A stretch of 64,000 nucleotides of DNA from a virus (IMGVR_UViG_2802428989_000001:1-64000); one strand, 5' to 3'; shown: positions 1 to 64,000, counted from the stretch's first letter. The notes: generated from the sequence alone by a model not told the origin. Program-made: numbers and translations.

Positions 1-1449
1 ATGCGATGCCCAACCCCTCAACTCAAGGGCTATCCCGACAAGACTGCGGCAGCCGACGAGCTAGCCCGTCGCTATCGGAATCCACCGAAGGCCGTCAAGC
101 CGTACGAGTGCGACTGCGGAGCGTGGCACCTCACGCCGCGCCAGCGCGCAGGGCGCGGCGAAGGCAAGCCTTACAAGCGCGGGGATGGCATGTGGATCTG
201 CGCGGTGACCGTGCCGGGTGCAGACGGCAAACAGAGGCGAAAAACAGTCTCAGCGAAGGACCGCGGTGCGGCACTCGATCGGCGCAAGAAGCTGCTGGAG
301 GACATCGCCAAGGGAAACATCATCCAGTCACCCAAGATCACGGTCGGCCAGTGGCTCGATCACTGGCTCGAAACCATCCACAAGCCGAATGTGAAGCCCA
401 AGACCTACCGCTACTACGAATCGGGGATTCGTCTGCTGATCAAGCCACACATCGGCAACAAACAGCTCGCCAAGCTGACACCCGAGGATGTTCGCACGGT
501 TATCAAGAAGATCAATGAAACGGGCTCGACACGGAACGCGGTCAAGGCGCATCAGATTCTTCAGAAGGCGCTCAAGGGTGCGATCAACGAAGGCGTGCTT
601 GAGCGCAACGTCGCCACGATGGTCAAGAAGCCCAGCCATGTGACTGCGGAGATTCAGCCGTTTACTGCGCCCGAGGCCAAGCACATCATGAGAACCGCGA
701 TCGACTTGAACGATCCTCTGGCGGATCGTTGGAGTTTCGGGTTCCTGACGGTGGCCCGCCCGAGCGAACTGAACGGCCTTGAATGGAGCCGGGTCGACTT
801 CGAGAACAAGGTCTTGGATCTGTCCTGGCAGCTACAAGAGCTGACGAATAAGAGGCACGGGTGCGGAGAGCCCAACGGCGATGGTGTCTACCCCTGCAAG
901 CGAAAGCGTGCGGCTTGGTGCCCAAAGGCGGAGTACGACTTCCAACCTGGCTTCGAGTATCGCCCCTGTCACGGTACGCAGGTGTGGACTCGCCCCAAGA
1001 CGGCCGCGGGGAAACGTTCCCTTCCGCTCATCAAGCCACTGGAAACTATGTTGCGCTTGCGATTAGAGCGCCAGAAGCCCGGACACCTGGACCTGGTCTG
1101 GGCTCACGATGACGGTCGGCCGTATGGCCCAACGGAGATGAATGAGCGATGGCATGCGCTCATGGTGGCCGCTGGGTTCGAGTTTGATGAATCCGTTACT
1201 GACCGTAATGAAATTGAGATCGAATCTGGAGACTCGGAAGTCCCAGATTTGCCTAGCCGAATGCTCTATGCGACAAGGCACACTGCCGCAACGCTTTTGA
1301 TGGAACTGAAGGTTCCAGAAGATGTGCGGATGGCGATAATGGGTCAGAGTTCTGTTGTCGCGCATCGCGGTTACGTCCATGTGGACCAGACGCAGACGAA
1401 GGCAGCATTGTCAAAACTGACCAAGTTGTTGAATCCAGCGCTACATTGA
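1..1449 (+). CDS. int: Tyrosine integrase (site-specific recombinase). The ORF starts at base 1, so the true start may lie upstream of the window.
   Basis: C-terminal catalytic residues R..H..R..Y are present ('RHTAATLLMEL...VVAHRGYVHVD'). N-terminal SAM-like domain. Position at the genome end, divergent from a repressor-like gene. Confidence 0.9.
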   Translation: MRCPTPQLKGYPDKTAAADELARRYRNPPKAVKPYECDCGAWHLTPRQRAGRGEGKPYKRGDGMWICAVTVPGADGKQRRKTVSAKDRGAALDRRKKLLEDIAKGNIIQSPKITVGQWLDHWLETIHKPNVKPKTYRYYESGIRLLIKPHIGNKQLAKLTPEDVRTVIKKINETGSTRNAVKAHQILQKALKGAINEGVLERNVATMVKKPSHVTAEIQPFTAPEAKHIMRTAIDLNDPLADRWSFGFLTVARPSELNGLEWSRVDFENKVLDLSWQLQELTNKRHGCGEPNGDGVYPCKRKRAAWCPKAEYDFQPGFEYRPCHGTQVWTRPKTAAGKRSLPLIKPLETMLRLRLERQKPGHLDLVWAHDDGRPYGPTEMNERWHALMVAAGFEFDESVTDRNEIEIESGDSEVPDLPSRMLYATRHTAATLLMELKVPEDVRMAIMGQSSVVAHRGYVHVDQTQTKAALSKLTKLLNPALH

Positions 1450-1876
1450 GTCCCACGCGGGGGCTGTCAATTGGCAGGCTGCGCGCCGTAAAGCATCGTT
1501 GCCACGGCTGTGGGGCGCTTGTGGCGTATGGGAACAGGGGACGATCTTGTTTGTAGCCATATACCCCTCTGTCGGCGAGGTCATCTATCACCATGTCGGG
1601 CCGCACGCGATGGTGTACATCGGTCAGTTGGTTCAGCTTGTCACGGGTTCGATAGTGGTGATCCCTTGCCGGCGCGTCAACGCGACACAACTCGCGGTCC
1701 AGTTCTACGCGCTTCGGCACCAGGATGTGTGGATAGAAACAGGTGATGGCCTACTGACCCATGTATCGGTGCCCATCGATTTGTCGTGGCAGGATGGTCC
1801 CTGTAGCGCTTCGATCGATATGAGAAAAGGACCGAGGAGGCGACTGGGTGGCGGTCGCCTGCTGATCTGCTGAGTC

Positions 1877-2365
1877 CTACTTTGATGCTCTGGTCCGACG
1901 CGTCGTCTTTTTCGGGGCTTCGGGCTCCGGTTTAGTCTTGGAGCCCAATACTTTTGGGGCGCTCTCAGCGTTCCCGTCGTCATCACTTTCGCTTGCTTTG
2001 ATCATCTCTCGTAGTAACGACAGCATTAGACCAAGCTGAGCGTCGCCCAGTTTCTCGGCACCAGGGGGAAGCATGGCTGCCAGTCGTGAAACATCGTCTT
2101 CGACGGGCAGGCCGACCGATCGTGCTATCGACAGCAATATGACATCGAGTTTCACATTGAGTGCGCGAGCCATGCCCTCTATCGATGCTGGTTCTGGGAA
2201 CTCTTTGACCTTGATTCCATTGGTGATCTGGTTCCAGCGTTGTGCCTTCACCACTCCACCGCTGGCGTCCTCCAGATCCTTGTACGTCCGATCACCCTTG
2301 AGGGTGAGTATCAAGTCTTGGAGAGTCAACCCATCCTCATCGCTACTCGCGTTGGTTACAGGCAT
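1877..2365 (-). CDS. Immunity-repressor-like DNA-binding protein (HTH) with an acidic/Lys-rich tail.
   Basis: Transcribed divergently from a Cro-like gene next to int. HTH-like segment 'TYKDLEDASGGVVKAQRWNQITNG'. The upstream intergenic region carries five copies of an 8-mer. Confidence 0.5.
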   Translation of the reverse strand: MPVTNASSDEDGLTLQDLILTLKGDRTYKDLEDASGGVVKAQRWNQITNGIKVKEFPEPASIEGMARALNVKLDVILLSIARSVGLPVEDDVSRLAAMLPPGAEKLGDAQLGLMLSLLREMIKASESDDDGNAESAPKVLGSKTKPEPEAPKKTTRRTRASK

Positions 2366-2388
2366 CTTGTCTTCCGATCGTCGGTGGT

Positions 2389-2612
2389 CACTAGTAGTTA
2401 GCGGTCCTGTCAGTTCTATTTGAGCTTGAAATTACCGGTAATGCAACTAGTAGCTCGTGGTTGCTGAACTTTACAACATCACTGCTCAGTGCGCAGGGCT
2501 TCGTTAGTCCACCCGCGTGGCGGGCTAGTAGATTCGCTGGACACGGCATATCAGTGGTTGACAGAGCAGTAGCTAGTAGTTGATGATCTACGCATCCCGT
2601 TCACCTACTAGT
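2389..2612. promoter_or_regulatory. Divergent promoter/operator region of the immunity switch, with five copies of ACTAGTAG (one inverted).
   Basis: ACTAGTAG at 2389-2396, 2445-2452, 2524-2531 (GCTAGTAG), 2572-2579 and, inverted, 2605-2612. TTGACA at 2558-2563. The region lies between the divergent genes at 2365 and 2630. Confidence 0.55.
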
Positions 2613-2629
2613 CACCACATCGTTGCGAG

Positions 2630-2941
2630 GTGGCGCTGAAGGGTTGTGAAAACGTGGCGCACGATGTCAGATCGGTCGAGGTCAAGAACCTACCGCTGCT
2701 GCGCAGCCTGGTTGGTCCTGAACCTGAGAAGCTGATGACGGCCCGTAACCTGGCTCAAAGAATCGGCAAGCACCCATCTTTCATCGGCCACCTCCTCAGT
2801 GGCGATCCTGATCGTTGTCGAACCTTCTCTATCGAAGTGGCGCAGGCGATTTCGGTGGCTCTCGGCGTGAAGATGTCGAATCTTTTTCAGCCCGCGTCGT
2901 CAATTACCAGACAACGACGCACCAACCAGCAGGCGAGCTAA
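2630..2941 (+). CDS. XRE-family HTH transcriptional regulator (Cro-like).
   Basis: Classic HTH_3 segment 'LMTARNLAQRIGKHPSFIGHLLSG'. First rightward gene after the operator region. Confidence 0.6.
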   Translation: MALKGCENVAHDVRSVEVKNLPLLRSLVGPEPEKLMTARNLAQRIGKHPSFIGHLLSGDPDRCRTFSIEVAQAISVALGVKMSNLFQPASSITRQRRTNQQAS

Positions 2942-3177
2942 TGTCCGATCTGATCACCGGCGAGATCACAGTCGGAATGGAACCGATCTTCGTACCCAAG
3001 AAAGTCGCCGCTAGGGCGCTGGGTGAGATCTCCCTGAACAAGCTGAACGAACTCATTAGGACAGGTCGTATCAATCCCCGAGTTTTAGACGGACGCGTGA
3101 TGTTCACGCCCGAAGAGTTGCGGAGATTTGCTGCCGAGCTGCCCTCATGGGAGCCCCCAGAGAGTCGGGGGCACTGA
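2941..3177 (+). CDS. Excisionase-like / MerR-type HTH DNA-binding protein.
   Basis: ATG at 2941 overlaps the upstream stop (TAATG). 'VAARALGEISLNKLNELIRTGRI' HTH. Small gene beside int and the repressor. Confidence 0.45.
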   Translation: MSDLITGEITVGMEPIFVPKKVAARALGEISLNKLNELIRTGRINPRVLDGRVMFTPEELRRFAAELPSWEPPESRGH

Positions 3178-4529
3178 TGGCACTGAAACTCGGTTCACTA
3201 TTTTCGGGCGCTGGAGGCCTGGATCTTGGTGTCGCTTCCATCTTCGACGCTGAGACCGTCTGGGTCTGCGAATTCAACAAAGACGCTCAGAAGGTGCTCG
3301 CGGCCCGCTTTCCGGGTCTACCCAACTTGATCGACGTGACCACCGTGGACTGGGCGACGGTAGAGGGTGTTGACATCCTGTGCGGCGGTTTCCCATGCCA
3401 GGACGTGAGTTGCGCGGGTGTTCGCAAGGGGCTTACCGAGGGGACGCGCTCTGGTCTCTGGTCCTACTTCGCCGAGGCTATCTCTGTGCTTCGCCCGAAG
3501 TTCGTCGTCATCGAGAACGTGAGGGGACTGCTCAGTGCAACCGCCGATCGCAACATGGAACCCAACGACTCAGACCTGGGAGAAGACGCAGGACAACCTA
3601 CACTCAACGCAGCCGGAGCCGTACTCGGAGACCTGGCCGGACTCGGGTACAACGCGAGCTGGCGGACTGTATCCGCGTCATGGTGGGGAGCCCCGCATCA
3701 GCGCGAGCGAGTCTTCATCCTTGCCTATCGTGCCGACCTCACGGCGACAGAAGTCGAAGAAGCAATCCGACCCGAATCAGGGGTCCATTTTGGACTGATC
3801 ACCGCCGAGTCGGGTGATCTGCTGCCGACACCCACCGCTGGCTACTACACGCGCGGGTCAAAGCATTTGATGCTGCCGTACGTCGCTCAGTATGCAACCG
3901 GCCACGATCCGGTGCCCGATCGGCCAGATCTAAAGGGTCGTCCTGATCCACTTCTGCCTACACCTATTGCGCTCCAGAACAACACACACAACAGCGCAGG
4001 TAAGCCGATGCTGACCGGACTGGTCAAGGAGTTGTTTCCGACGCCGACAGCGAGCGACGGAAACGGCGCTGGACCACACGGTGACGGCGGCCCGGATCTG
4101 CGGACGGTGGTCAGCGGCATGTTCCCGCTGATGCCTACGCCGGTGGCGTCCGACGACCGAAACGGCGTGCACCCCGACAAACGGCGGAGCTACGGCATCG
4201 GTGCGTCGATCGTCCAGATCGTTGATCTCGCTGTCGCCTACGGCGAACCCGAGTGGCACCAGTACGACCCGGCGATCAAGCGATGGGAGGCGCTGTTTCG
4301 TCCAGCGCCGTATCCCGTGGTACCCGGCAACGGGTCGCCTCAGCTCAACCCTCGGTTCTCCGAGTGGATGATGGGCTGGCCGCAGGATTGGGTCAACATC
4401 GACGGCCTGTCTCGTCGCGTCCAGAACCGCATCTGTGGCAATGGCGTCGTGCCGCAACAGGCCGCTGGCGCGCTGCGCTGGATGCTCAGTGACCTAATCG
4501 CAGAGCTGAATGCGGCGGTGGCGGCATGA
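3177..4529 (+). CDS. DNA (cytosine-5)-methyltransferase.
   Basis: Motif I 'FSGAGGLDLG', motif IV 'GFPCQDVS', motif VI 'VIENVRGL', motif VIII 'QRERVFILAY', motif X 'GNGVVP'. An alternative start is ATG 3147. Confidence 0.9.
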   Translation: MALKLGSLFSGAGGLDLGVASIFDAETVWVCEFNKDAQKVLAARFPGLPNLIDVTTVDWATVEGVDILCGGFPCQDVSCAGVRKGLTEGTRSGLWSYFAEAISVLRPKFVVIENVRGLLSATADRNMEPNDSDLGEDAGQPTLNAAGAVLGDLAGLGYNASWRTVSASWWGAPHQRERVFILAYRADLTATEVEEAIRPESGVHFGLITAESGDLLPTPTAGYYTRGSKHLMLPYVAQYATGHDPVPDRPDLKGRPDPLLPTPIALQNNTHNSAGKPMLTGLVKELFPTPTASDGNGAGPHGDGGPDLRTVVSGMFPLMPTPVASDDRNGVHPDKRRSYGIGASIVQIVDLAVAYGEPEWHQYDPAIKRWEALFRPAPYPVVPGNGSPQLNPRFSEWMMGWPQDWVNIDGLSRRVQNRICGNGVVPQQAAGALRWMLSDLIAELNAAVAA

Positions 4530-5293
4530 GCGCCGTCGACCAGTACATACCCGTAGCCGGGCTGCTGGAGCCACTGGGGCTGACCTGGAGTCATCAGACA
4601 TCTCTCGCTGCGCTACTCGCGGCCAACGATGAGGGCAAAGATCTCGCAGCCTGGGACCGAATCGATCTCAAGGCGTATCAGATCGCAACTGCGGAGATGG
4701 AGATGGTCAGCATCCTTCCGACCTTCGTCCACGACCAGCTCAAAGCGATCGCGGTTCCCGACCGAATCGTGTACTACCGCCACAACTTCTATCTGATGGG
4801 CATTGAGACGGGCGCGGAAGTTCATCGCTCGACGATCGCACTCATGGCGTTGGCCGCGCGAGGCAAGAGCTACGACCCCGCGGCTAAAAAACGCATCAAG
4901 GGTCTACCGATGGACATCGACCGCGGGCTGATCGTGCACATCCCCGAGGGTGCAAAGAAGGCCACCGTGCACTGGGTCAATCTGCTACGCGGATGGGGCG
5001 ATGTGTCGCTGGCACACAGGCTCTCTGAGCTTCGCAAGCGCACTGTCAAGGACTACATCGCGCCCGTGCGGCGTCCCGACGACCGGCCCAAGAACGCTCA
5101 GGCTTACCGCCGTCGCGGCCAGTTCGACAACTTTTCCAACAGGACACGCAAGCGGTTCGACGTACTCGCAGCACGTGCGAAGGACATCGAAGAGCTGCGC
5201 GACGTGTACACGCGAGCGCACAAGAACATTGCGCTCACCCCCAGCTTCAAAGAGGCATGCAAACGACGGCTAGCGGAGCTGTCGGCCTCCTAG
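4526..5293 (+). CDS. Hypothetical protein; degenerate paralog of the RecB/Cas4-like nuclease at 8235 with the nuclease motifs lost.
   Basis: Shares 'PDRI', 'IVHIPEGAKKATVHWVNLLRGWGDVSLAHRL' and the C-terminal 'IEELRD...FKEACKRRLAELSAS' with 8235..9164. The D-x-K and QxxxY positions are replaced ('YLMGIETG', 'ALMAL'). Confidence 0.5.
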   Translation: MSAVDQYIPVAGLLEPLGLTWSHQTSLAALLAANDEGKDLAAWDRIDLKAYQIATAEMEMVSILPTFVHDQLKAIAVPDRIVYYRHNFYLMGIETGAEVHRSTIALMALAARGKSYDPAAKKRIKGLPMDIDRGLIVHIPEGAKKATVHWVNLLRGWGDVSLAHRLSELRKRTVKDYIAPVRRPDDRPKNAQAYRRRGQFDNFSNRTRKRFDVLAARAKDIEELRDVYTRAHKNIALTPSFKEACKRRLAELSAS

Positions 5294-29778: not shown

Positions 29779-32700
29779 GCAGGCTCAAGCGCTCCAGAGC
29801 GTCCTGGGCGACCTTTCTACGCTATCCACCAAAGACCTTGTGAGCCTGTACAAGAAGCTCGAAGGCGACGGCGCTACCGGTGCCGACTTGCTGGACGCGT
29901 TCAAGGCCGTGTTCCCCGAGGTTGTACAGCCTTACGTCGAGGCCGCATCCGAAGTGGCGAATCAGTGGTACGGGGAGCTGGCACCCGATGAGCCGTACAC
30001 ACCGAAAGCGGTCGCCGCGATCGACGCGGTGCCACTAGACCGCATGATGAACTCTCTGGAGTGGGCGTTTCGCGCCGCTGGCACCGCTCACCCGCTGACA
30101 AGACTGACCGGTTCGGCGCAGCGCATGGTGTTCGACGGTGCTCGCGCGACGATTCTGCACAACGCTGACGCCGAGAATGTCAAGTACTCGCGCCTGGCGT
30201 CGCCGGGTGCGTGCGAGTTCTGTCGAGTGATGGCCACGCGTGGAGCGGTCTACCGCAGCGCTCACGCGGCGCAGGCGGGCCATGACAACTGCCATTGCGT
30301 GCCGGCTGTTGCCCGCGGAAAGCTCAAATTCCAGCGTCCGGGGTACTACCAGGACTGGGATGCCGAGTACATCGAGACGGTCAAACAGCTCGAAGCTGAG
30401 CAGATCAAGCCGACGCTCAACGCGGTCCTGTCGAAAATGCGGGCCAACGAACTGGCCGCGTCAGACAGCGGGCCAACACTGGTAGCGATGTCTACCAAGA
30501 AGTCACCGGCATCGGCGGACCTCGCAAAGTGGCTTGATGCTGAGAAACAGCACCAGGCGGACGTGGCCGCTTGGCTGGACGCCGAGAAGGTAGTCACGAA
30601 GAAGAAGGCCAAGGCCGCGGCGCAGGCGAAGTACGTCGCCAAGAAGAAGGCCACCGCCGAGTGGCTGGCGGCTGAGCAGCAGTACCAGACAGATGTAACG
30701 ACGTGGCTCGCGGCTGAGAAGGACTTCACCAAGAAAAAGGCCAAGGCCGCAGCGCAGGCGAAGTATGTCGCGAACAAGAAGGCGACTGTCGCCTGGCTTA
30801 AGGCCGAGCAGATCTACATCGAGCAGCAGGCCCCACTTGCGACCGCTGCGGCAGCGGCCAAGGCATCCGCGAAGATCACCGCGATGGCGAACGCGGCCGC
30901 GAACGTCGATCTCAAGAAAGCGGCCAAGGCACTCGCGGCGGCCAAGCATGCGGCCAAAAAGAAGGGCGACACTGCCAAGTACAACGTACTGGCCAAGATG
31001 ACGCCCACGGAATACGTGCAATCCAAGGGTGGCAACGCATCCAAGGCCGCGACGACGGCCACCGCCAAGGTCACCACACCGGAGACCGCGCCGACCGCCG
31101 GAGTCGGCACTGTATCCACCGCGACCAAGCCCAAGGTTGTCGTCGGCGAGCTGACAGATTCGCCGAACGTGCTCGCCAGCACCGGTCAGGTACTCGGCAC
31201 GCACGGCGCCACGGTGTACACCGACTCACAGTCTCAGAAGTGGTTGGTCAAGGGGCCCAAGAACCCGAATGATCAATTCCTGGTCACGCTGGATGCGGCA
31301 TCTGCTGAGCTGCAAGCGAAGTCGGGCTTGACGACACCGGCGATGTACATCATGACGGTAGGTGGTAAGCGTCAGTCCGTTCAGTACATGTTCCCCGGAA
31401 GTAAGAGTGCCTTTCCTTCTGGGGTTGACCTGTCCACAATCAGTGAACCTGATCTGTTGACGATCCAGAAGCATCACGCGCTCGACTGGCTGATGGGTAA
31501 TCACGACAGCCATGCTGGGCAGTTCATCCGTACTGGTAGCGGTGAGATCGTCGGAATCGACAAGGGTCAAGCCTTCAAGTATTTCACCGGCGACAAGCTG
31601 GACTGGAACTATCACCCCAACGTCAAGCACGGCACGCCAGAACCCATTTACAACACGCTGTTTCGGCAGTACGCCGAAGGCAAGCCCGGTCAGTTGCTCA
31701 ATCCCTCGGGCGGCGAGCTAGCGGACTACATCCAAGGTTTACAGGCGATTCCAGACAAAGAGATTCGCAACCTATTTCGGCCCTACGCCGAGGGTGCGGT
31801 CAAACAGGGGAAGCTGTTGGTCGAGGCCAACGGTAGCACTCCAACGAACAATGTTGACGCGTTCCTAGACGCAGTTGTTGCCAGAAAGAACAGTCTCGGA
31901 ACCGATCTGAGCGCCTACTACGTCAAGGCTGTCGAAAAGCGTCTGACGAAGACCAAAGTCAAAGGTGAGGTCATCACCGTGCCGCCAGGGATGAGCATCT
32001 CCCAGGGTGACATCCTGCTGCCGACACCATCAGCGACGACGACGGTTCTGTTGCCGTCTGCTGATGTGCTCAAGAAGGCAGGCAAAGCACTCGCATCCGC
32101 GAAGTATCTAGCGAAAAAGAAGGGCGATACAGCCAAGTTCGCCGAGCTGTCGAAGTTGTCACCCGCTCAATACTTGCAGACCAAGAGCGGTGATGGCCTC
32201 GTGCCCACGGCCGCTACCGAGTCACCCACGGGTTCTGCGACCACTATTCAAATTGCCAAGTGGCAAAAGGAATTTCTCCAGAAGTTCGGCTCCAGCGGGT
32301 TCTTCCAGCCTGTCAAGTCGATGGCGGTCGAGAAGGGTATCAAGCTTTCGGAGGCAATCCCAGAGTTCGATAAAGAGTTCGGAATCAACGCCTTGACCGT
32401 GGATCAGATGGTCAACCTGATGGGCTATTACGGCGCGGCCGTCCAGAGCAAGTGGATCAACAAGTATGGCGATCTGCTCGGCGATGACGTAGCCACAAAG
32501 GTGTGGGACAAGCTCAAGGCGCAGGGCAAGTCCACACTCATAGAACCGCCGAAACCTGTTGCCATCAAGCCGGGTACGAAGTACACACCCGAGCATGAGC
32601 AGCCCGTAGCCGAAATCGCCAAGCTGGGTAAGGCTGTCATCGCCAACCCGAAAGCACCGGTTGGATCTGCGGACAACCCGCACATATTCGACGCGAGCGG

Positions 32701-57628: not shown

Positions 57629-58638
57629 CAGAACTCGTATCCTTCCGCTTCTGAAATCTCTTTCTGGTAGCGCGTTTCCAGCCGATCGAACCACTCGGCA
57701 GGCCATGGGTCGTCATACATCGCGCCGAGGATTGATCCCGCGATCGCCGCGATCGAGTCGCTGTCACCGCTCGTGACCGTCGCGCGACGTAGTGCCGCTA
57801 TCGGGTCATTGGGAAACAGATCGATGCAGAACAGCGCGCACGCCAGCGCATCATGAGCGCGCCAGCCGGGGCCAGCGTGCTCACACGGATCGAGATCCCA
57901 CGGATCAACACCAGAATCACGCAACTGGCGAAGTGCGATATCCGCGGTCAGTAGACGGTCCTGGACGAAGAGCAGACCGCGCGTCATGAACCGACGCACG
58001 CCGACCTCAGCGACGACAGGGTGACCGTCGATCCAACGGGCAACATCCGTAAGTAGAGACGAATCATGATGTAGCCCAGTGCTTGCCAGATAGACCGCCT
58101 CTTCGAGCAGCCGCCCTGGGTAGATGCTTCGCGCATTGCGGATGATCGCTGCGGTCAAGAGCGATGCGGCGATGCCCGTCGCGCGCCCGTGGGTGGATGC
58201 TGCTTGCCACGCGGCGACCCCTTGCCAGCTGCGATCTTTGGTTACGAAAGCTGCTGGACTGACGCGCATTACCGTGCCGCATCCATCCGAGTTCAAAATA
58301 GTGGCCTTGGGCCAGGGGAAGTCGTTCTTCAACGCCCCGATAGCGCGCATGCACGTGTTGCCCGGTGCGCGGTTGTTGTCTGGGTCATCGAACCACTTGA
58401 TCCACTGATCGATGATCTTGACGCCAACCTCATCATCGGTCAATTCTTTTGTGTCGTGGAGACCTCGCGCGAGCGCGAGCGTCATCTGAGTGTCGTCGCT
58501 GATGATCAGCTTCTCAGGCAGCTCTGGGCCCATTAGCCCGTTTTCGGTGAGCTGAGCGTACGACCTGAACTCATTGCGGTAGCCCCACGCATCGCCATAG
58601 GCGACACCACGGAGCACGTTGGACCATTTACTAGGCAT
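57628..58638 (-). CDS. ADP-ribosylglycohydrolase (DraG/ARH family).
   Basis: N-terminal 'GVAYGDAWG' and C-terminal 'SGDSDSIAAIAGSILGAMYD' metal-binding signatures of the ARH fold. Confidence 0.85.
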   Translation of the reverse strand: MPSKWSNVLRGVAYGDAWGYRNEFRSYAQLTENGLMGPELPEKLIISDDTQMTLALARGLHDTKELTDDEVGVKIIDQWIKWFDDPDNNRAPGNTCMRAIGALKNDFPWPKATILNSDGCGTVMRVSPAAFVTKDRSWQGVAAWQAASTHGRATGIAASLLTAAIIRNARSIYPGRLLEEAVYLASTGLHHDSSLLTDVARWIDGHPVVAEVGVRRFMTRGLLFVQDRLLTADIALRQLRDSGVDPWDLDPCEHAGPGWRAHDALACALFCIDLFPNDPIAALRRATVTSGDSDSIAAIAGSILGAMYDDPWPAEWFDRLETRYQKEISEAEGYEF

Positions 58639-58924: not shown

Positions 58925-59731
58925 ATGACACACATGACCGACGACAAGATCGTTGACAAGATCGCAAAGCTGTTGCGACAGGCCGAGGATGTAACAGGGA
59001 CGCCCGAGGAGGATGCGTTTCAAGAGCGCGCCTTCGCACTGCTGGCCAAGCATGGCATCGACCTGGCGACTGTGCGCGCACATCAGCGCGGACTCGACAT
59101 CAGCGACATGCCGAACGCCATCGACACGCTGATGCTTGTTCATAGTCCTTACGCGAGTGAGCAGAAGCACATGCTGTCCATCCTCGCGGAGGCGCTGCAT
59201 TGCAAGACCGTTGGACTCAATGACATCCCGTTCGTGCATGTCTTCGGTATGTCTCACCATGTTGCGCGTCTACAAATGCTCTGGGAGATATTGCAACCAC
59301 AGGCGACGCGCTTGGTTGCCAAAGTGCAGATGTCGAAACGGAAACCGGTTCGCAAGCTCACCCCATCCGAGTGGGCGGCGATGAATCGAGCGCAGCGAAG
59401 AGACCACCTGGTAGAGATGACGCGCGAAAGACGTGCACCGGTATCACTGCACGTTTATCGCCAGTCGTGGTTGATCGGGTTTGCCGCGTCGATCGCTCAG
59501 CGCATTAAGCTCCAGGAAGGAGAGGCCGCCAACAAGGCTGGCGTGGTCGCGCTATACAAGTCCGACCGTGAGCGCGCTGACGACGCGATGCGCGGCGCGT
59601 ACCCGGACGCGGTCAACACTATGGTGGACCAGTTCAGTGACGATGGATTCAACCAGGGTGCGCGCGCCGGACAGACCGCGACCATGGATCGGCCGGTTGA
59701 GTCTGTAGACCCTCTAGGTTTGCCGCGCTAG
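58925..59731 (+). CDS. Hypothetical protein with an alpha-helical N-terminus ('KIVDKIAKLLRQAE...EEDAFQERAFALLAKHGI').
   Basis: ATG immediately after the operator. 268 aa. Confidence 0.55.
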   Translation: MTHMTDDKIVDKIAKLLRQAEDVTGTPEEDAFQERAFALLAKHGIDLATVRAHQRGLDISDMPNAIDTLMLVHSPYASEQKHMLSILAEALHCKTVGLNDIPFVHVFGMSHHVARLQMLWEILQPQATRLVAKVQMSKRKPVRKLTPSEWAAMNRAQRRDHLVEMTRERRAPVSLHVYRQSWLIGFAASIAQRIKLQEGEAANKAGVVALYKSDRERADDAMRGAYPDAVNTMVDQFSDDGFNQGARAGQTATMDRPVESVDPLGLPR

Positions 59732-59767
59732 TAGCTTGCACTACCGGCCACGTCACTAGACTAAAAG

Positions 59768-62255: not shown

Positions 62256-62307
62256 TGAATGCACCTTCCGCACCTTGCGAAAGAGGTTGTTGTTGGTGAT
62301 GTTTGAA

Positions 62308-62350
62308 CACCCCCGCCCGCCACCCGGTATAGAAAGAACGGGCGGGGGTG
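62308..62350. other. Perfect 12-bp GC hairpin (CACCCCCGCCCG ... CGGGCGGGGGTG) in the leader region of the AAA gene.
   Basis: 19-nt loop. Lies between the upstream small gene and the AAA start. Confidence 0.5.
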
Positions 62351-62515
62351 CGTTGTGTTGGTGACGTGAGCCAGTCTTAGGGATCGCGCCCAATGACCAC
62401 TTAGCGCGCTAGCTCGCGTCCTTACCGTGGCCGCGACCAACGAAATCACTTCTCAGACAAACGAGACGGGACCAGGGGGCGTGAGGGTCGCTCACGACCC
62501 CTGGTGATCTGCTGA

Positions 62516-62701
62516 CTAGCTAGACAGCAGATCTTCGCCTTGTTCGATGTGGGCTAGCTCTGTCTCCAGGGATTGCACTTCGGCCACGAGAGCACGAAGC
62601 TCGCGTTTGCGATTTGCAATCTTCTGGGTGACAACCCTGCGTCGTTGGCGCAGGGTTGCTAGCGCCTCATCTCGGCTCATCCCGTCAGGCAGTTGAACCA
62701 T
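62516..62701 (-). CDS. Small coiled-coil protein (61 aa).
   Basis: Strong SD 'CAAGGAGGTGAAC' before ATG at 62701 (the ORF track starts it at 62743). Confidence 0.45.
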   Translation of the reverse strand: MVQLPDGMSRDEALATLRQRRRVVTQKIANRKRELRALVAEVQSLETELAHIEQGEDLLSS

Positions 62702-62774
62702 GTTCACCTCCTTGTTTCCGCTTGTCGTCGTTGTGATTGACACCTTTCGGTGTCGCTGATCAGTGTAGCAGCAA

Positions 62775-62883
62775 TGGTAGACAGGTCTACCAATATGGAC
62801 TCACTGAAAGTGTTGTACAAGGCAACGCTACGTCAAATGGTGGACATAGACCTCGTGCAGTTTAGGTAGTAGAGTCATCTACC
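62775..62883. promoter_or_regulatory. Divergent promoter region with a perfect 18-bp palindrome and a second GGTAG...CTACC site.
   Basis: TGGTAGAC-AG-GTCTACCA at 62775-92. GGTAG-n9-CTACC at 62865-83. Confidence 0.55.
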
Positions 62884-62907
62884 AACGTGCAACTGAGGAG
62901 GTTCACC

Positions 62908-63105
62908 ATGTCAGAACAGGTTTTCACCGCGACCGACCCGGACGGCGACACGCTGGACGTGCAACACTGGGCCAAGGCGCAGAAGATCACCGTCAAGGTT
63001 CTAGACCGAGACGGCGATTTCCAGTCGGTCGAGCTGGACTATGGCGACGCTGCTGAGCTGGCGACAGCCATCACGGGGACGCTCGCGGAGGTGGCGGGGG
63101 CGTGA
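62908..63105 (+). CDS. Small acidic hypothetical protein (65 aa).
   Basis: RBS 'GAGGAGG' 7 nt before ATG 62908. Confidence 0.45.
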   Translation: MSEQVFTATDPDGDTLDVQHWAKAQKITVKVLDRDGDFQSVELDYGDAAELATAITGTLAEVAGA

Positions 63106-63210
63106 CCGACCCCTACGCAGCGGATGTGTACGACCCTCTGGCGTGCAACTATCCCTGGGCATGCTCGTCTCGTCATAGCGCTTGGCGTCTGAGTGCGCTG
63201 AAAAAATCAA

Positions 63211-63249
63211 GGAACTGAGACCTGCTGTATGGCAATAGGTCTCAGTTCC
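63211..63249 (-). terminator. Rho-independent terminator for the lipoprotein gene (- strand).
   Basis: 13-bp stem GGAACTGAGACCT / AGGTCTCAGTTCC with an A6 tract on the + strand, giving a U-tract on the - strand. Confidence 0.75.
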
Positions 63250-63595
63250 GGTCGTCTACCTTAGTGATCGCCTGATCAACGTGAGATACGCGCGCCGGAC
63301 AGACGTAACTCATGCCCATGCGCGTCGCGTTAATGACGCCGTTGCTGCCCTTGTCATGATTGAGCGCGACCCACTTGGCCATCTCTTCGGTGCTGTAGTT
63401 GCAATGCTCGACCGCTTGGTCATAGAGCGCATCGAAGCGGAAGTCACCATTTGGGTAGGCGCGTCTGAATTCAGTGCCCCAGGCCTGCTGGTTGACCTCG
63501 GACTTCGTTTTGAGTACATCAGGTGCGCTAGCCGGCGCTGAGCACGCCAGGACGCAACCAGCGGTCAGCGCGGCTAGTGCGATCTTGGTGAACAT
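63242..63595 (-). CDS. Secreted lipoprotein (signal peptide plus lipobox LTAGC).
   Basis: 'MFTKIALAALTAGCVLACSAPASA'. Has its own terminator. Moron-like or host gene. Confidence 0.6.
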   Translation of the reverse strand: MFTKIALAALTAGCVLACSAPASAPDVLKTKSEVNQQAWGTEFRRAYPNGDFRFDALYDQAVEHCNYSTEEMAKWVALNHDKGSNGVINATRMGMSYVCPARVSHVDQAITKVDDRN

Positions 63596-64000
63596 GGCGT
63601 GATGCTAGTACCAACTAGAAACGCAGGGGAGGGGTTATGCCGAACTGCCATCCGGCCATCCCGGATCGGGCGGCAGAGTAGGCGGCGGCTCGGTCCGCAT
63701 GTATGGATCGGGCCAGTCTGTCGGGGTTCCGGGCGCGAGTTTGTTGCACACGCGGACTTGTTCATCGCTGACGCGTGGCTGCTCGAACAGCAACCAGGTT
63801 CCGAACACGTTGTCTGTCGGTCGCCTTGCAGGGCCACGCTGCTGTGCAAGGGGTGCGCGCTGCTGTGCCGGTGTTAGCGAGGGATCGGGACCGAAGATAT
63901 ATGCCTGAGTCACACCGCCAGGTAAGGAGCCTCGGCTGATATAAGTGCCCTCGCGCTCCGTGAGGGTAGGGCCAATTCGGGTGCCTGCACGCCCCCGGTG

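Follow-up and report, generated by a model that had tools for sequence, protein, structure and literature searches.

Introduction

Which DNA sites serve the immunity switch of cluster MabR prophages, and which protein binds them? The question is raised by a group of short repeated words between a leftward repressor gene and a rightward cro gene in a viral stretch of 64,000 nucleotides (IMGVR_UViG_2802428989_000001:1-64000), called here the window. Clinical strains of Mycobacterium abscessus and M. chelonae harbour MabR prophages. For one of these, McProf, a link to higher whiB7 expression and to antibiotic resistance has been reported, and its orthologue of the repressor, gp3, is highly expressed in lysogens (PMC8191103). 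The McProf and MabR papers regard gp3 as the probable immunity repressor because it resembles proteins of DS6A and K2 phages, and describe no operators, promoters or motifs in the gap between the two genes (PMC9434293, PMC8191103). Nor did the searched literature contain reports of operators, promoters, binding, footprints or transcription starts for MabR or the gp3 family.

Comparison of the locus with its relatives suggests, with a probability that we put at about 0.68, that five (A/G)CTAGTA(G/A) words in this gap make up the operators of the MabR immunity switch. The feature is real, statistically solid, conserved and very probably regulatory, and the words most likely act as operators of the repressor and possibly also of Cro. 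Repressor/Cro operators in a divergent promoter region are an element of an ordinary kind, undescribed for the MabR cluster.

Gene context of the repressor-cro gap

In a megablast search, positions 1-5000 of the window matched Mycobacterium phage prophiFSAT01-1 (BK061308.1) at 100%. This is a cluster MabR prophage of Mycobacteroides abscessus strain 280, and window coordinates equal BK061308.1 coordinates minus 217. Four other MabR prophages matched at 76-90%, namely McProf, prophiFSIL01-1, prophiFVLQ01-1 and prophiFSQJ01-1 (the last three shortened below to FSIL01, FVLQ01 and FSQJ01). Annotation and family matches give the following gene order.

1-1449, rightward: tyrosine integrase (BK061308.1 annotation and a clear Pfam match)
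Between integrase and repressor: gene 2 (BK061308.1 annotation)
1877-2365, minus strand: gp3, immunity repressor, 162 aa (BK061308.1 annotation; phrog_12831)
2654-2941, plus strand: gp4, Cro-like HTH protein with a GTG start at 2654 (annotation; phrog_1373)
2941-3177, plus strand: gp5, excise (annotation; weak HTH_17 Pfam match), predicted to be co-transcribed with Cro
Rightward of excise: C-5 DNA methylase (annotation and a clear Pfam match)

The two divergent genes that flank the gap, described from the sequence as repressor-like and Cro-like, are thus annotated as immunity repressor and Cro. The Cro start had been placed at 2630. A start at 2654 is better, because GenBank annotates the GTG there and because an 8-nt deletion in FSQJ01 between 2630 and 2654 breaks a frame opened at 2630, and the upstream start was dropped. 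The repressor-cro gap therefore measures 288 bp (2366-2653) instead of 264 bp.

The att core is formed by the first about 45 nt of BK061308.1, left of int and about 2 kb from the repressor; the attL sequence is given in PMC8191103. Between this core and the integrase start, in the part of the record that precedes the window (record positions 1-217), CAACATAGT and AGCTACAGC each occur twice as short direct repeats, which could be integrase arm-type sites.

A repeated word confined to the gap

The unit shared by all five gap copies is the 7-mer CTAGTAG, starting at 2391, 2447, 2525 and 2573 on the plus strand and at 2605 on the minus strand. The exact 8-mer ACTAGTAG is present three times in the 64 kb window, each time in the gap (2390-2397 and 2446-2453, plus strand; 2605-2612, minus strand); dinucleotide shuffles contained 0.20 copies on average and never reached three. 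The remaining two gap copies read GCTAGTAG (2524-2531 and 2572-2579). An earlier count of five copies, four direct and one inverted, is thus right for the 7-mer; for the exact 8-mer the number five does not stand, as there are three copies of ACTAGTAG and two of GCTAGTAG. We dropped the 8-mer as repeat unit since it matches just three of the five copies, and used CTAGTA(G/A) as the common unit.

CTAGTAG is an odd palindrome of 7 bp, CTA-G-TAG, in flanks that are not symmetric, so that the distinction between direct and inverted copies is carried only by the central base and the flanks. For the same reason, the description of the copies as asymmetric operators is doubtful; asymmetry is not established with a core of this form.

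Six copies of CTAGTAG are found in the 64 kb, five of them within 221 bp of the gap, at successive spacings of 56, 78, 48 and 32 bp, and the sixth at 59728. Given the single copy elsewhere, five or more in 288 bp have a Poisson probability of about 1.6e-14. When all 7-mers were scanned, only three places in the window, the gap among them, had a 7-mer with five or more copies inside 300 bp; shuffles of local composition never gave more than four copies. The tetramer CTAG itself is rarer in the window than base composition predicts (101 observed, about 229 expected). Tandem Repeats Finder detected no tandem repeats in the gap, and Rfam no RNA families in the window.

Outside the gap, the window contains just two matches to the word. 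One is GCTAGTAG at 59727-59734, in the last codons of gene 86 and about 60 bp upstream of gene 87 (HTH protein). The other is TTACTAG at 58628-58634, at the gene 85/84 junction. The McProf counterpart of this right-arm region is expressed in lysogens (PMC8191103). Both words could be due to chance or be weak extra repressor sites.

The match upstream of gene 87 is the one observation in favor of a stoperator system, i.e., a repressor site distributed over the genome that blocks elongation, as in cluster A mycobacteriophages. The sequence-only reading had raised this idea, and we consider it highly improbable. The genome-wide count gives one exact CTAGTAG and one CTAGTAR-type near copy outside the gap, fewer than the about 9 that mononucleotide composition predicts from shuffles, and the last 3.5 kb of the record (64218-67729) adds none. 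Moreover, gp3 is unrelated to cluster A repressors: no cluster A phage was among the 54 tblastn matches to gp3 in 50,697 phage records. The stoperator reading was rejected because only one or two copies lie outside the gap.

Other repeats in the window

Three further stretches drew attention. Positions 19442-19600 hold six to seven copies of a 10-11 nt word, TGAAACAGTC(G), in both orientations, together with a perfect 12-nt inverted repeat at 19516-19541. The cluster lies inside hypothetical gene 38, directly after a DnaB-like helicase gene (17783-19426), and looks like a candidate iteron-type replication origin. At 30600-31100 the 7-mer CTTGGCC/GGCCAAG is repeated five times within imperfect direct repeats of 51-80 nt that are rich in GCC/AAG triplets; if coding, these look like ordinary Lys/Ala-rich repeats. 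A second CTAG-dense stretch is located at 62300-63800, near the right end of the prophage and among small hypothetical genes.

Position of the words relative to promoter-like elements

The sites and the promoter-like elements of the gap are listed below in order of position.

2390-2397, plus strand: site 1, ACTAGTAG, 25-32 nt upstream of the repressor ATG
2429-2434, minus strand: candidate leftward repressor -10, TAATTT, predicted from the aligned position in homologous loci
2446-2453, plus strand: site 2, ACTAGTAG, in the spacer/-35 zone of the candidate leftward promoter, 13-19 nt upstream of its -10
2524-2531, plus strand: site 3, GCTAGTAG, ending 27 nt upstream of the P_R -35
2558-2587, plus strand: P_R, rightward early promoter-like site, TTGACA-N18-GATGAT, from a sigma-70 consensus scan
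2572-2579, plus strand: site 4, GCTAGTAG, at spacer positions 9-16 of 18 in P_R
2605-2612, minus strand: site 5, ACTAGTAG, in the Cro leader, at about +10 to +18 from the inferred P_R start

The TTGACA hexamer reported earlier at 2558-2563 was confirmed and pairs with GATGAT at 2582-2587 across an 18-nt spacer, so that 10 of the 12 consensus positions are matched. It is the sole sigma-70-like match that a strict consensus scan returned in 1400-3300, and neither hexamer varies among the five MabR prophages. Word 4 falls within the spacer of this predicted promoter, and word 5 just downstream of it.

The candidate leftward promoter is absent from the same strict scan. At the aligned position, homologous loci carry TATAGT, TATATT, TATGAT, TAATAT or TAGAAT (alignment read by eye), and FVLQ01 has TAGTTG; a -10-like hexamer is thus kept in most, not all, relatives. 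In loci outside MabR, TTGCnn precedes the hexamer at 16-17 nt. A convincing leftward -35 was not found in MabR, where the corresponding stretch is taken up by word 2. The candidate -10 is overlapped by ATTACCGGTAAT (2431-2442), a 12-bp perfect palindrome located between sites 1 and 2; McProf has the identical sequence, and FSIL01 and FVLQ01 have an imperfect version (CCAG).

Site 1 probably sits inside the leader of the repressor mRNA. Together, sites 1 and 5 form a 14-nt inverted repeat, GTGGTCACTAGTAG / CTACTAGTCACCAC (2384-2397 / 2605-2618), that is 93% complementary.

Conservation within cluster MabR

The gaps of the five MabR prophages were aligned; four are close to each other and FSQJ01 is divergent. 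In the four close members, the CTAGTA cores are invariant at 30 of 30 positions, as compared to 199 of 246 (81%) in the rest of the gap (Fisher P = 0.003). When FSQJ01 is added, the figures become 24 of 30 and 115 of 246 (P = 0.0004). The seventh base is G or A, with A in site 2 of FSIL01, in sites 2 and 3 of FVLQ01 and in sites 3 and 4 of FSQJ01, and site 3 reads ACTAGTAG in McProf and FSIL01. The flanks of the five words vary and are not conserved. Site 5 is present in four of the prophages and lost in FSQJ01, which keeps CTAGTA at the other four positions.

The nucleotide similarity of FSQJ01 to the window begins at 2447, at site 2, and extends to 3804 (76%); to the left, its repressor and integrase are much more diverged. 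This alignment break suggests a mosaic (recombination) boundary inside the operator region at around 2447.

Related layouts in homologous repressor loci

Using tblastn and protein searches, we found gp3 homologues of 35-55% identity in Gordonia, Mycobacterium, Tsukamurella, Arthrobacter and Glutamicibacter phages and in environmental mycobacterial prophages. Scans of contig collections yielded one new locus and otherwise recovered known ones. DNA was compared for about fifteen homologue loci; the promoter and spacer counts cover 14 loci.

All 14 loci have TTGAC[AG]-N17/18-nAnnnT upstream of the repressor and pointing away from it. Its distance to the repressor start is 116-225 nt across the 14 loci, 187-203 nt in most mycobacterial ones and 193-194 nt in all five MabR prophages. 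In every one of the 14, the promoter spacer contains a word with at most two mismatches to CTA[CG]TAG, a property of 17% of random 18-mers drawn from the same loci. At most one mismatch is seen in 9 of 14 loci, as compared to 2.3% of the random 18-mers, and in five of nine independent lineages outside MabR. The P_R spacer of the window matches exactly. Since the promoter regions share ancestry, part of this spacer similarity may be inherited and not selected.

Around this common element, each locus has its own extended word, repeated three to five times in the gap, with GCCTAC, GTCTACTG, GTGTCGCC, CGTCTACC and AGTGATAACC as examples. Words assigned to individual loci are as follows.

L010: GCCTAC
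L015: G(T/G)CTAC
L013 and L014: GTGTCGC(CT)
MooMoo, BearBQ and TPA4: CGTCTACC
BIM BV-113: AGTGATAACC
prophi91-4: CTGCCTA
L016: TAGTGG

Offsets were compared in fixed windows cut relative to the P_R -35, without gaps. In the closer homologues, extra copies of the word occur about 48 and 126 bp upstream of the spacer word. The words of L010 and L015 fall within about 1 nt of the offsets of window sites 2, 3 and 4, and L011, L012, L013, L014 and L016 agree at some site offsets or with a shift of a few nucleotides. At about the site 2 offset, the repeated word of the locus is found in L010 and L015 (within 1 nt), in L016 and in L014 (about 3 nt off). The site 3 offset is occupied by a CTAC/TTAC/AGTAG-type word in L010, L015, L011 and L012 and by GTGTCGC in L013 and L014. 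None of the compared loci outside MabR has a counterpart of site 1 or site 5 at the corresponding offset. Some loci contain perfect palindromes of 15-18 bp (TTGCCTACTAGGCAA in L010, CGTCTACCTGTAGACG in MooMoo and CTGCCTATCAGTAGGCAG in prophi91-4), which fit the expectation for dimeric HTH operators.

The homologues in Milly (K2) and DS6A, which the MabR papers name and which are the closest of the phage homologues given there, were uninformative as comparators and were set aside. Neither offered a divergent immunity cassette with CTAGTA repeats: Milly gp35 is co-oriented with its neighbours, and DS6A gp58 has just a 29-bp gap to gene 59. As both genes lie outside a divergent repressor/cro cassette, their naming as immunity repressors is open to doubt, or else they are regulated differently.

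With these comparisons in hand, an origin of the words in chance or in the composition of A+T-richer, stop-codon-rich intergenic DNA can be given a negligible weight. TAG does occur twice in the word, and such triplets are more frequent in intergenic DNA. Composition does not account for a Poisson probability of order 1e-14, for shuffles that never reach five copies, for invariant cores in variable flanks, or for related words at similar positions in distant loci.

The layout also bears on other binders. Excise (HTH_17), integrase arm-type domains or a host factor might recognize the words, or these might be targets (ACTAGT/CTAG) of the C-5 methylase. The excise and methylase genes lie just downstream, and CTAG is avoided genome-wide. 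Apl of phage 186 is a recombination directionality factor that acts as a regulator. Binding of directionality factors to direct repeats between early promoters has been described (PMC7498355). Even so, we rate this group of explanations as very unlikely. Spacings of 56, 78, 48 and 32 bp are unlike the tandem arrays of one helical turn typical of directionality factors, about 2.4 kb separate the gap from attL, which makes integrase arm-type sites unlikely, and the methylase has no link to the CTAGTAG word. Furthermore, the related layout travels with the repressor homologues in loci that have different neighbours.

Candidate DNA-binding proteins

The repressor matched phrog_12831 ('transcriptional repressor') with E = 3.7e-38. 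At E <= 0.01 it had no Pfam match, and 7 of 18 homologues gave a weak HTH_31 match; searches of the PDB by sequence and profile returned no meaningful solved relative. In the alignment of 18 gp3 homologues, residues 40-46 (K-A-Q-R-W-N-Q, K40-Q46) are invariant, and the helix pattern of the family is given as KAQRW(N/Q)Q. AlphaFold, run with the 18 sequences, predicted a five-helix HTH-like pattern for the N-terminal half, with K40-Q46 in the third helix; because the pLDDT was just 53, the helix pattern alone was used from the model. The putative recognition helix is GGVVKAQRWNQITNG. Its invariance fits the common CTA..TAG core and leaves the lineage-specific flanks unexplained.

Possible covariation of protein and word is seen in P0016, P0017 and L018, which have ..NQFANG in place of ..NQITNG and share GGCGACAC at the P_R site; L013 and L014 repeat GGCGACAC upstream. 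This hints that residues just after the recognition helix vary together with the word.

Gp4 matched phrog_1373 and, with E = 6.6e-4, HTH_3, below the Pfam cut-off. In L010 and further loci, the repressor is found together with Cro-like genes that have the same HPS[FY]I..HL motif. The words may be operators only or mainly of the Cro-like gp4, while gp3 acts elsewhere in the gap. FSQJ01 lends this proposal some weight: its repressor is strongly diverged (50% identical to gp3, the putative recognition helix being altered too), its Cro shares 68% identity with gp4 and has a nearly identical HTH, and CTAGTA is still present at four of the five positions. Since the diverged repressor is combined with a kept Cro HTH, the retained cores do not separate repressor from Cro binding. 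Still, binding by Cro only or mainly appears unlikely to us. FSQJ01 retains the Q-R-W core of the gp3 helix, words 1 and 2 are on the repressor side, where repressor autoregulation is usual, and the gap has no other repeated word for gp3. In classical switches, repressor and Cro share operators, so the proposal is not exclusive of binding by gp3.

A model for the MabR switch

Operators for the repressor, possibly shared with Cro, are the reading that we develop further. In a lysogen, the leftward repressor gp3, a small HTH-type protein, would occupy the words. Word 4 would fill the -35/-10 spacer of the promoter that is predicted to drive cro, excise, methylase and early genes, and word 5 would lie a few bases into the rightward transcript. 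Occupation of words 4 and 5 could then keep RNA polymerase off P_R or halt it before clearance. Word 2, in the upstream part of the predicted leftward promoter, and word 1, in the repressor leader, would provide autoregulation, and word 3, between both promoters, may be a site for cooperative binding or bridging. Cro may use the same words with different preferences. The centre-to-centre distances of 126 bp (sites 2-4) and 32 bp (sites 4-5) are near whole helical turns, which would allow cooperative contacts on the same face. Observed are the words, their clustering and conservation, the promoter-like hexamers and the layout found across the family; which protein binds, where transcription starts and whether the leftward promoter is regulated positively or negatively are inferred.

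The earlier label of candidate repressor operators agrees with what the comparisons suggest: the words look operator-like in being conserved above background, in placing word 4 in the P_R spacer and in having a related layout in homologous loci. Several observations argue against the operator reading. A conserved core of 7-8 bp is short for a dimeric HTH protein, and gp3 lacks a significant Pfam HTH match or solved relative, with a structure model of low confidence. The leftward promoter consists of just a -10-like hexamer with no -35 and is not conserved in FVLQ01. An invariant recognition helix also fits poorly with different words in each locus; either specificity lies elsewhere, or the common CTA core is what is read.

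A bolder proposal can be made, which we regard as tentative and put well short of an even chance. The MabR words would be one form of a conserved operator architecture in phrog_12831, an actinophage repressor family that is uncharacterised and has neither a Pfam domain nor a solved structure. Three positions would be fixed, namely the P_R spacer, a point about 48 bp upstream and, in the leftward promoter, another at about 126 bp upstream. Because the helix is invariant while the extended words differ by lineage, immunity specificity would lie outside the helix. The outer inverted copies GTGGT[C/G]ACTAGTAG (sites 1 and 5, about 214 bp apart) would possibly close a repression loop over both promoters.

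Knowledge of the operators and the early promoter would permit designed induction or curing of MabR prophages, and operators could be used for repressor-controlled expression tools in M. abscessus and to predict homo- and hetero-immunity between prophages that are related. Comparison across the family offers a first testable operator model for a widespread and uncharacterised actinophage repressor family. The added value is modest and consists in the family-wide operator layout; the arrangement is otherwise a standard repressor/operator one.

Comparison with known switches

The MabR locus resembles that of the mycobacteriophage BPs: both have int, repressor and cro together at one end of the genome of a mycobacterial prophage, and operators, predicted ones in MabR, between repressor and cro. 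The attP of BPs is within the repressor gene, which has the orientation of int. MabR differs in that int is rightward at attL and the repressor is 2 kb from the att core, with gene 2 between them. Integration-dependent immunity of the BPs/Brujita type was considered and ruled out for MabR, as the att core lies left of int and not in the repressor 3' end. BPs gp33 is mentioned in PMC8191103.

Like lambda O_R, with its CI/Cro operators, the MabR gap has several copies of one short, roughly symmetric word between a divergent repressor and cro. One of these sits across the lytic promoter and further ones are on the side of the repressor promoter (both promoters being predictions in MabR), and lysogens express the repressor. 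Lambda O_R consists of three 17-bp sites about 24 bp apart, between P_R and P_RM, whereas MabR has five sites over 220 bp, with spacings of 32-78 bp and a conserved core of 7-8 bp. Unlike lambda CI, gp3 has no LexA-like cleavage domain: Pfam found no Peptidase S24 (self-cleavage) domain in gp3 or in the 18 homologues. Induction must therefore differ from that of lambda. A counterpart of O_L was not found in the MabR prophage.

Gp71 of L5 and cluster A is likewise an actinophage immunity repressor with many copies of a short site, one of them at the early lytic promoter (PMC9283540, PMC6550527). The cluster A sites are 13-bp, asymmetric, monomer-bound and present in tens of copies throughout the genome in one orientation. 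In MabR, on the other hand, the copies are confined to one gap, the core is palindromic and the repressor is unrelated.

The nearest likeness is with the other phrog_12831 loci (MooMoo gp42, BearBQ gp49, Kenna gp55, prophi91-4 gp12 and the environmental mycobacterial prophages L010-L018), which encode the same protein family and have a similar TTGACA-N18 promoter with a CTA[CG]TAG-like word in the spacer. They differ from MabR in that each lineage has an extended word of its own. Among the compared loci, MabR alone combines five copies of the bare CTAGTAG core with two outer inverted copies (sites 1 and 5).
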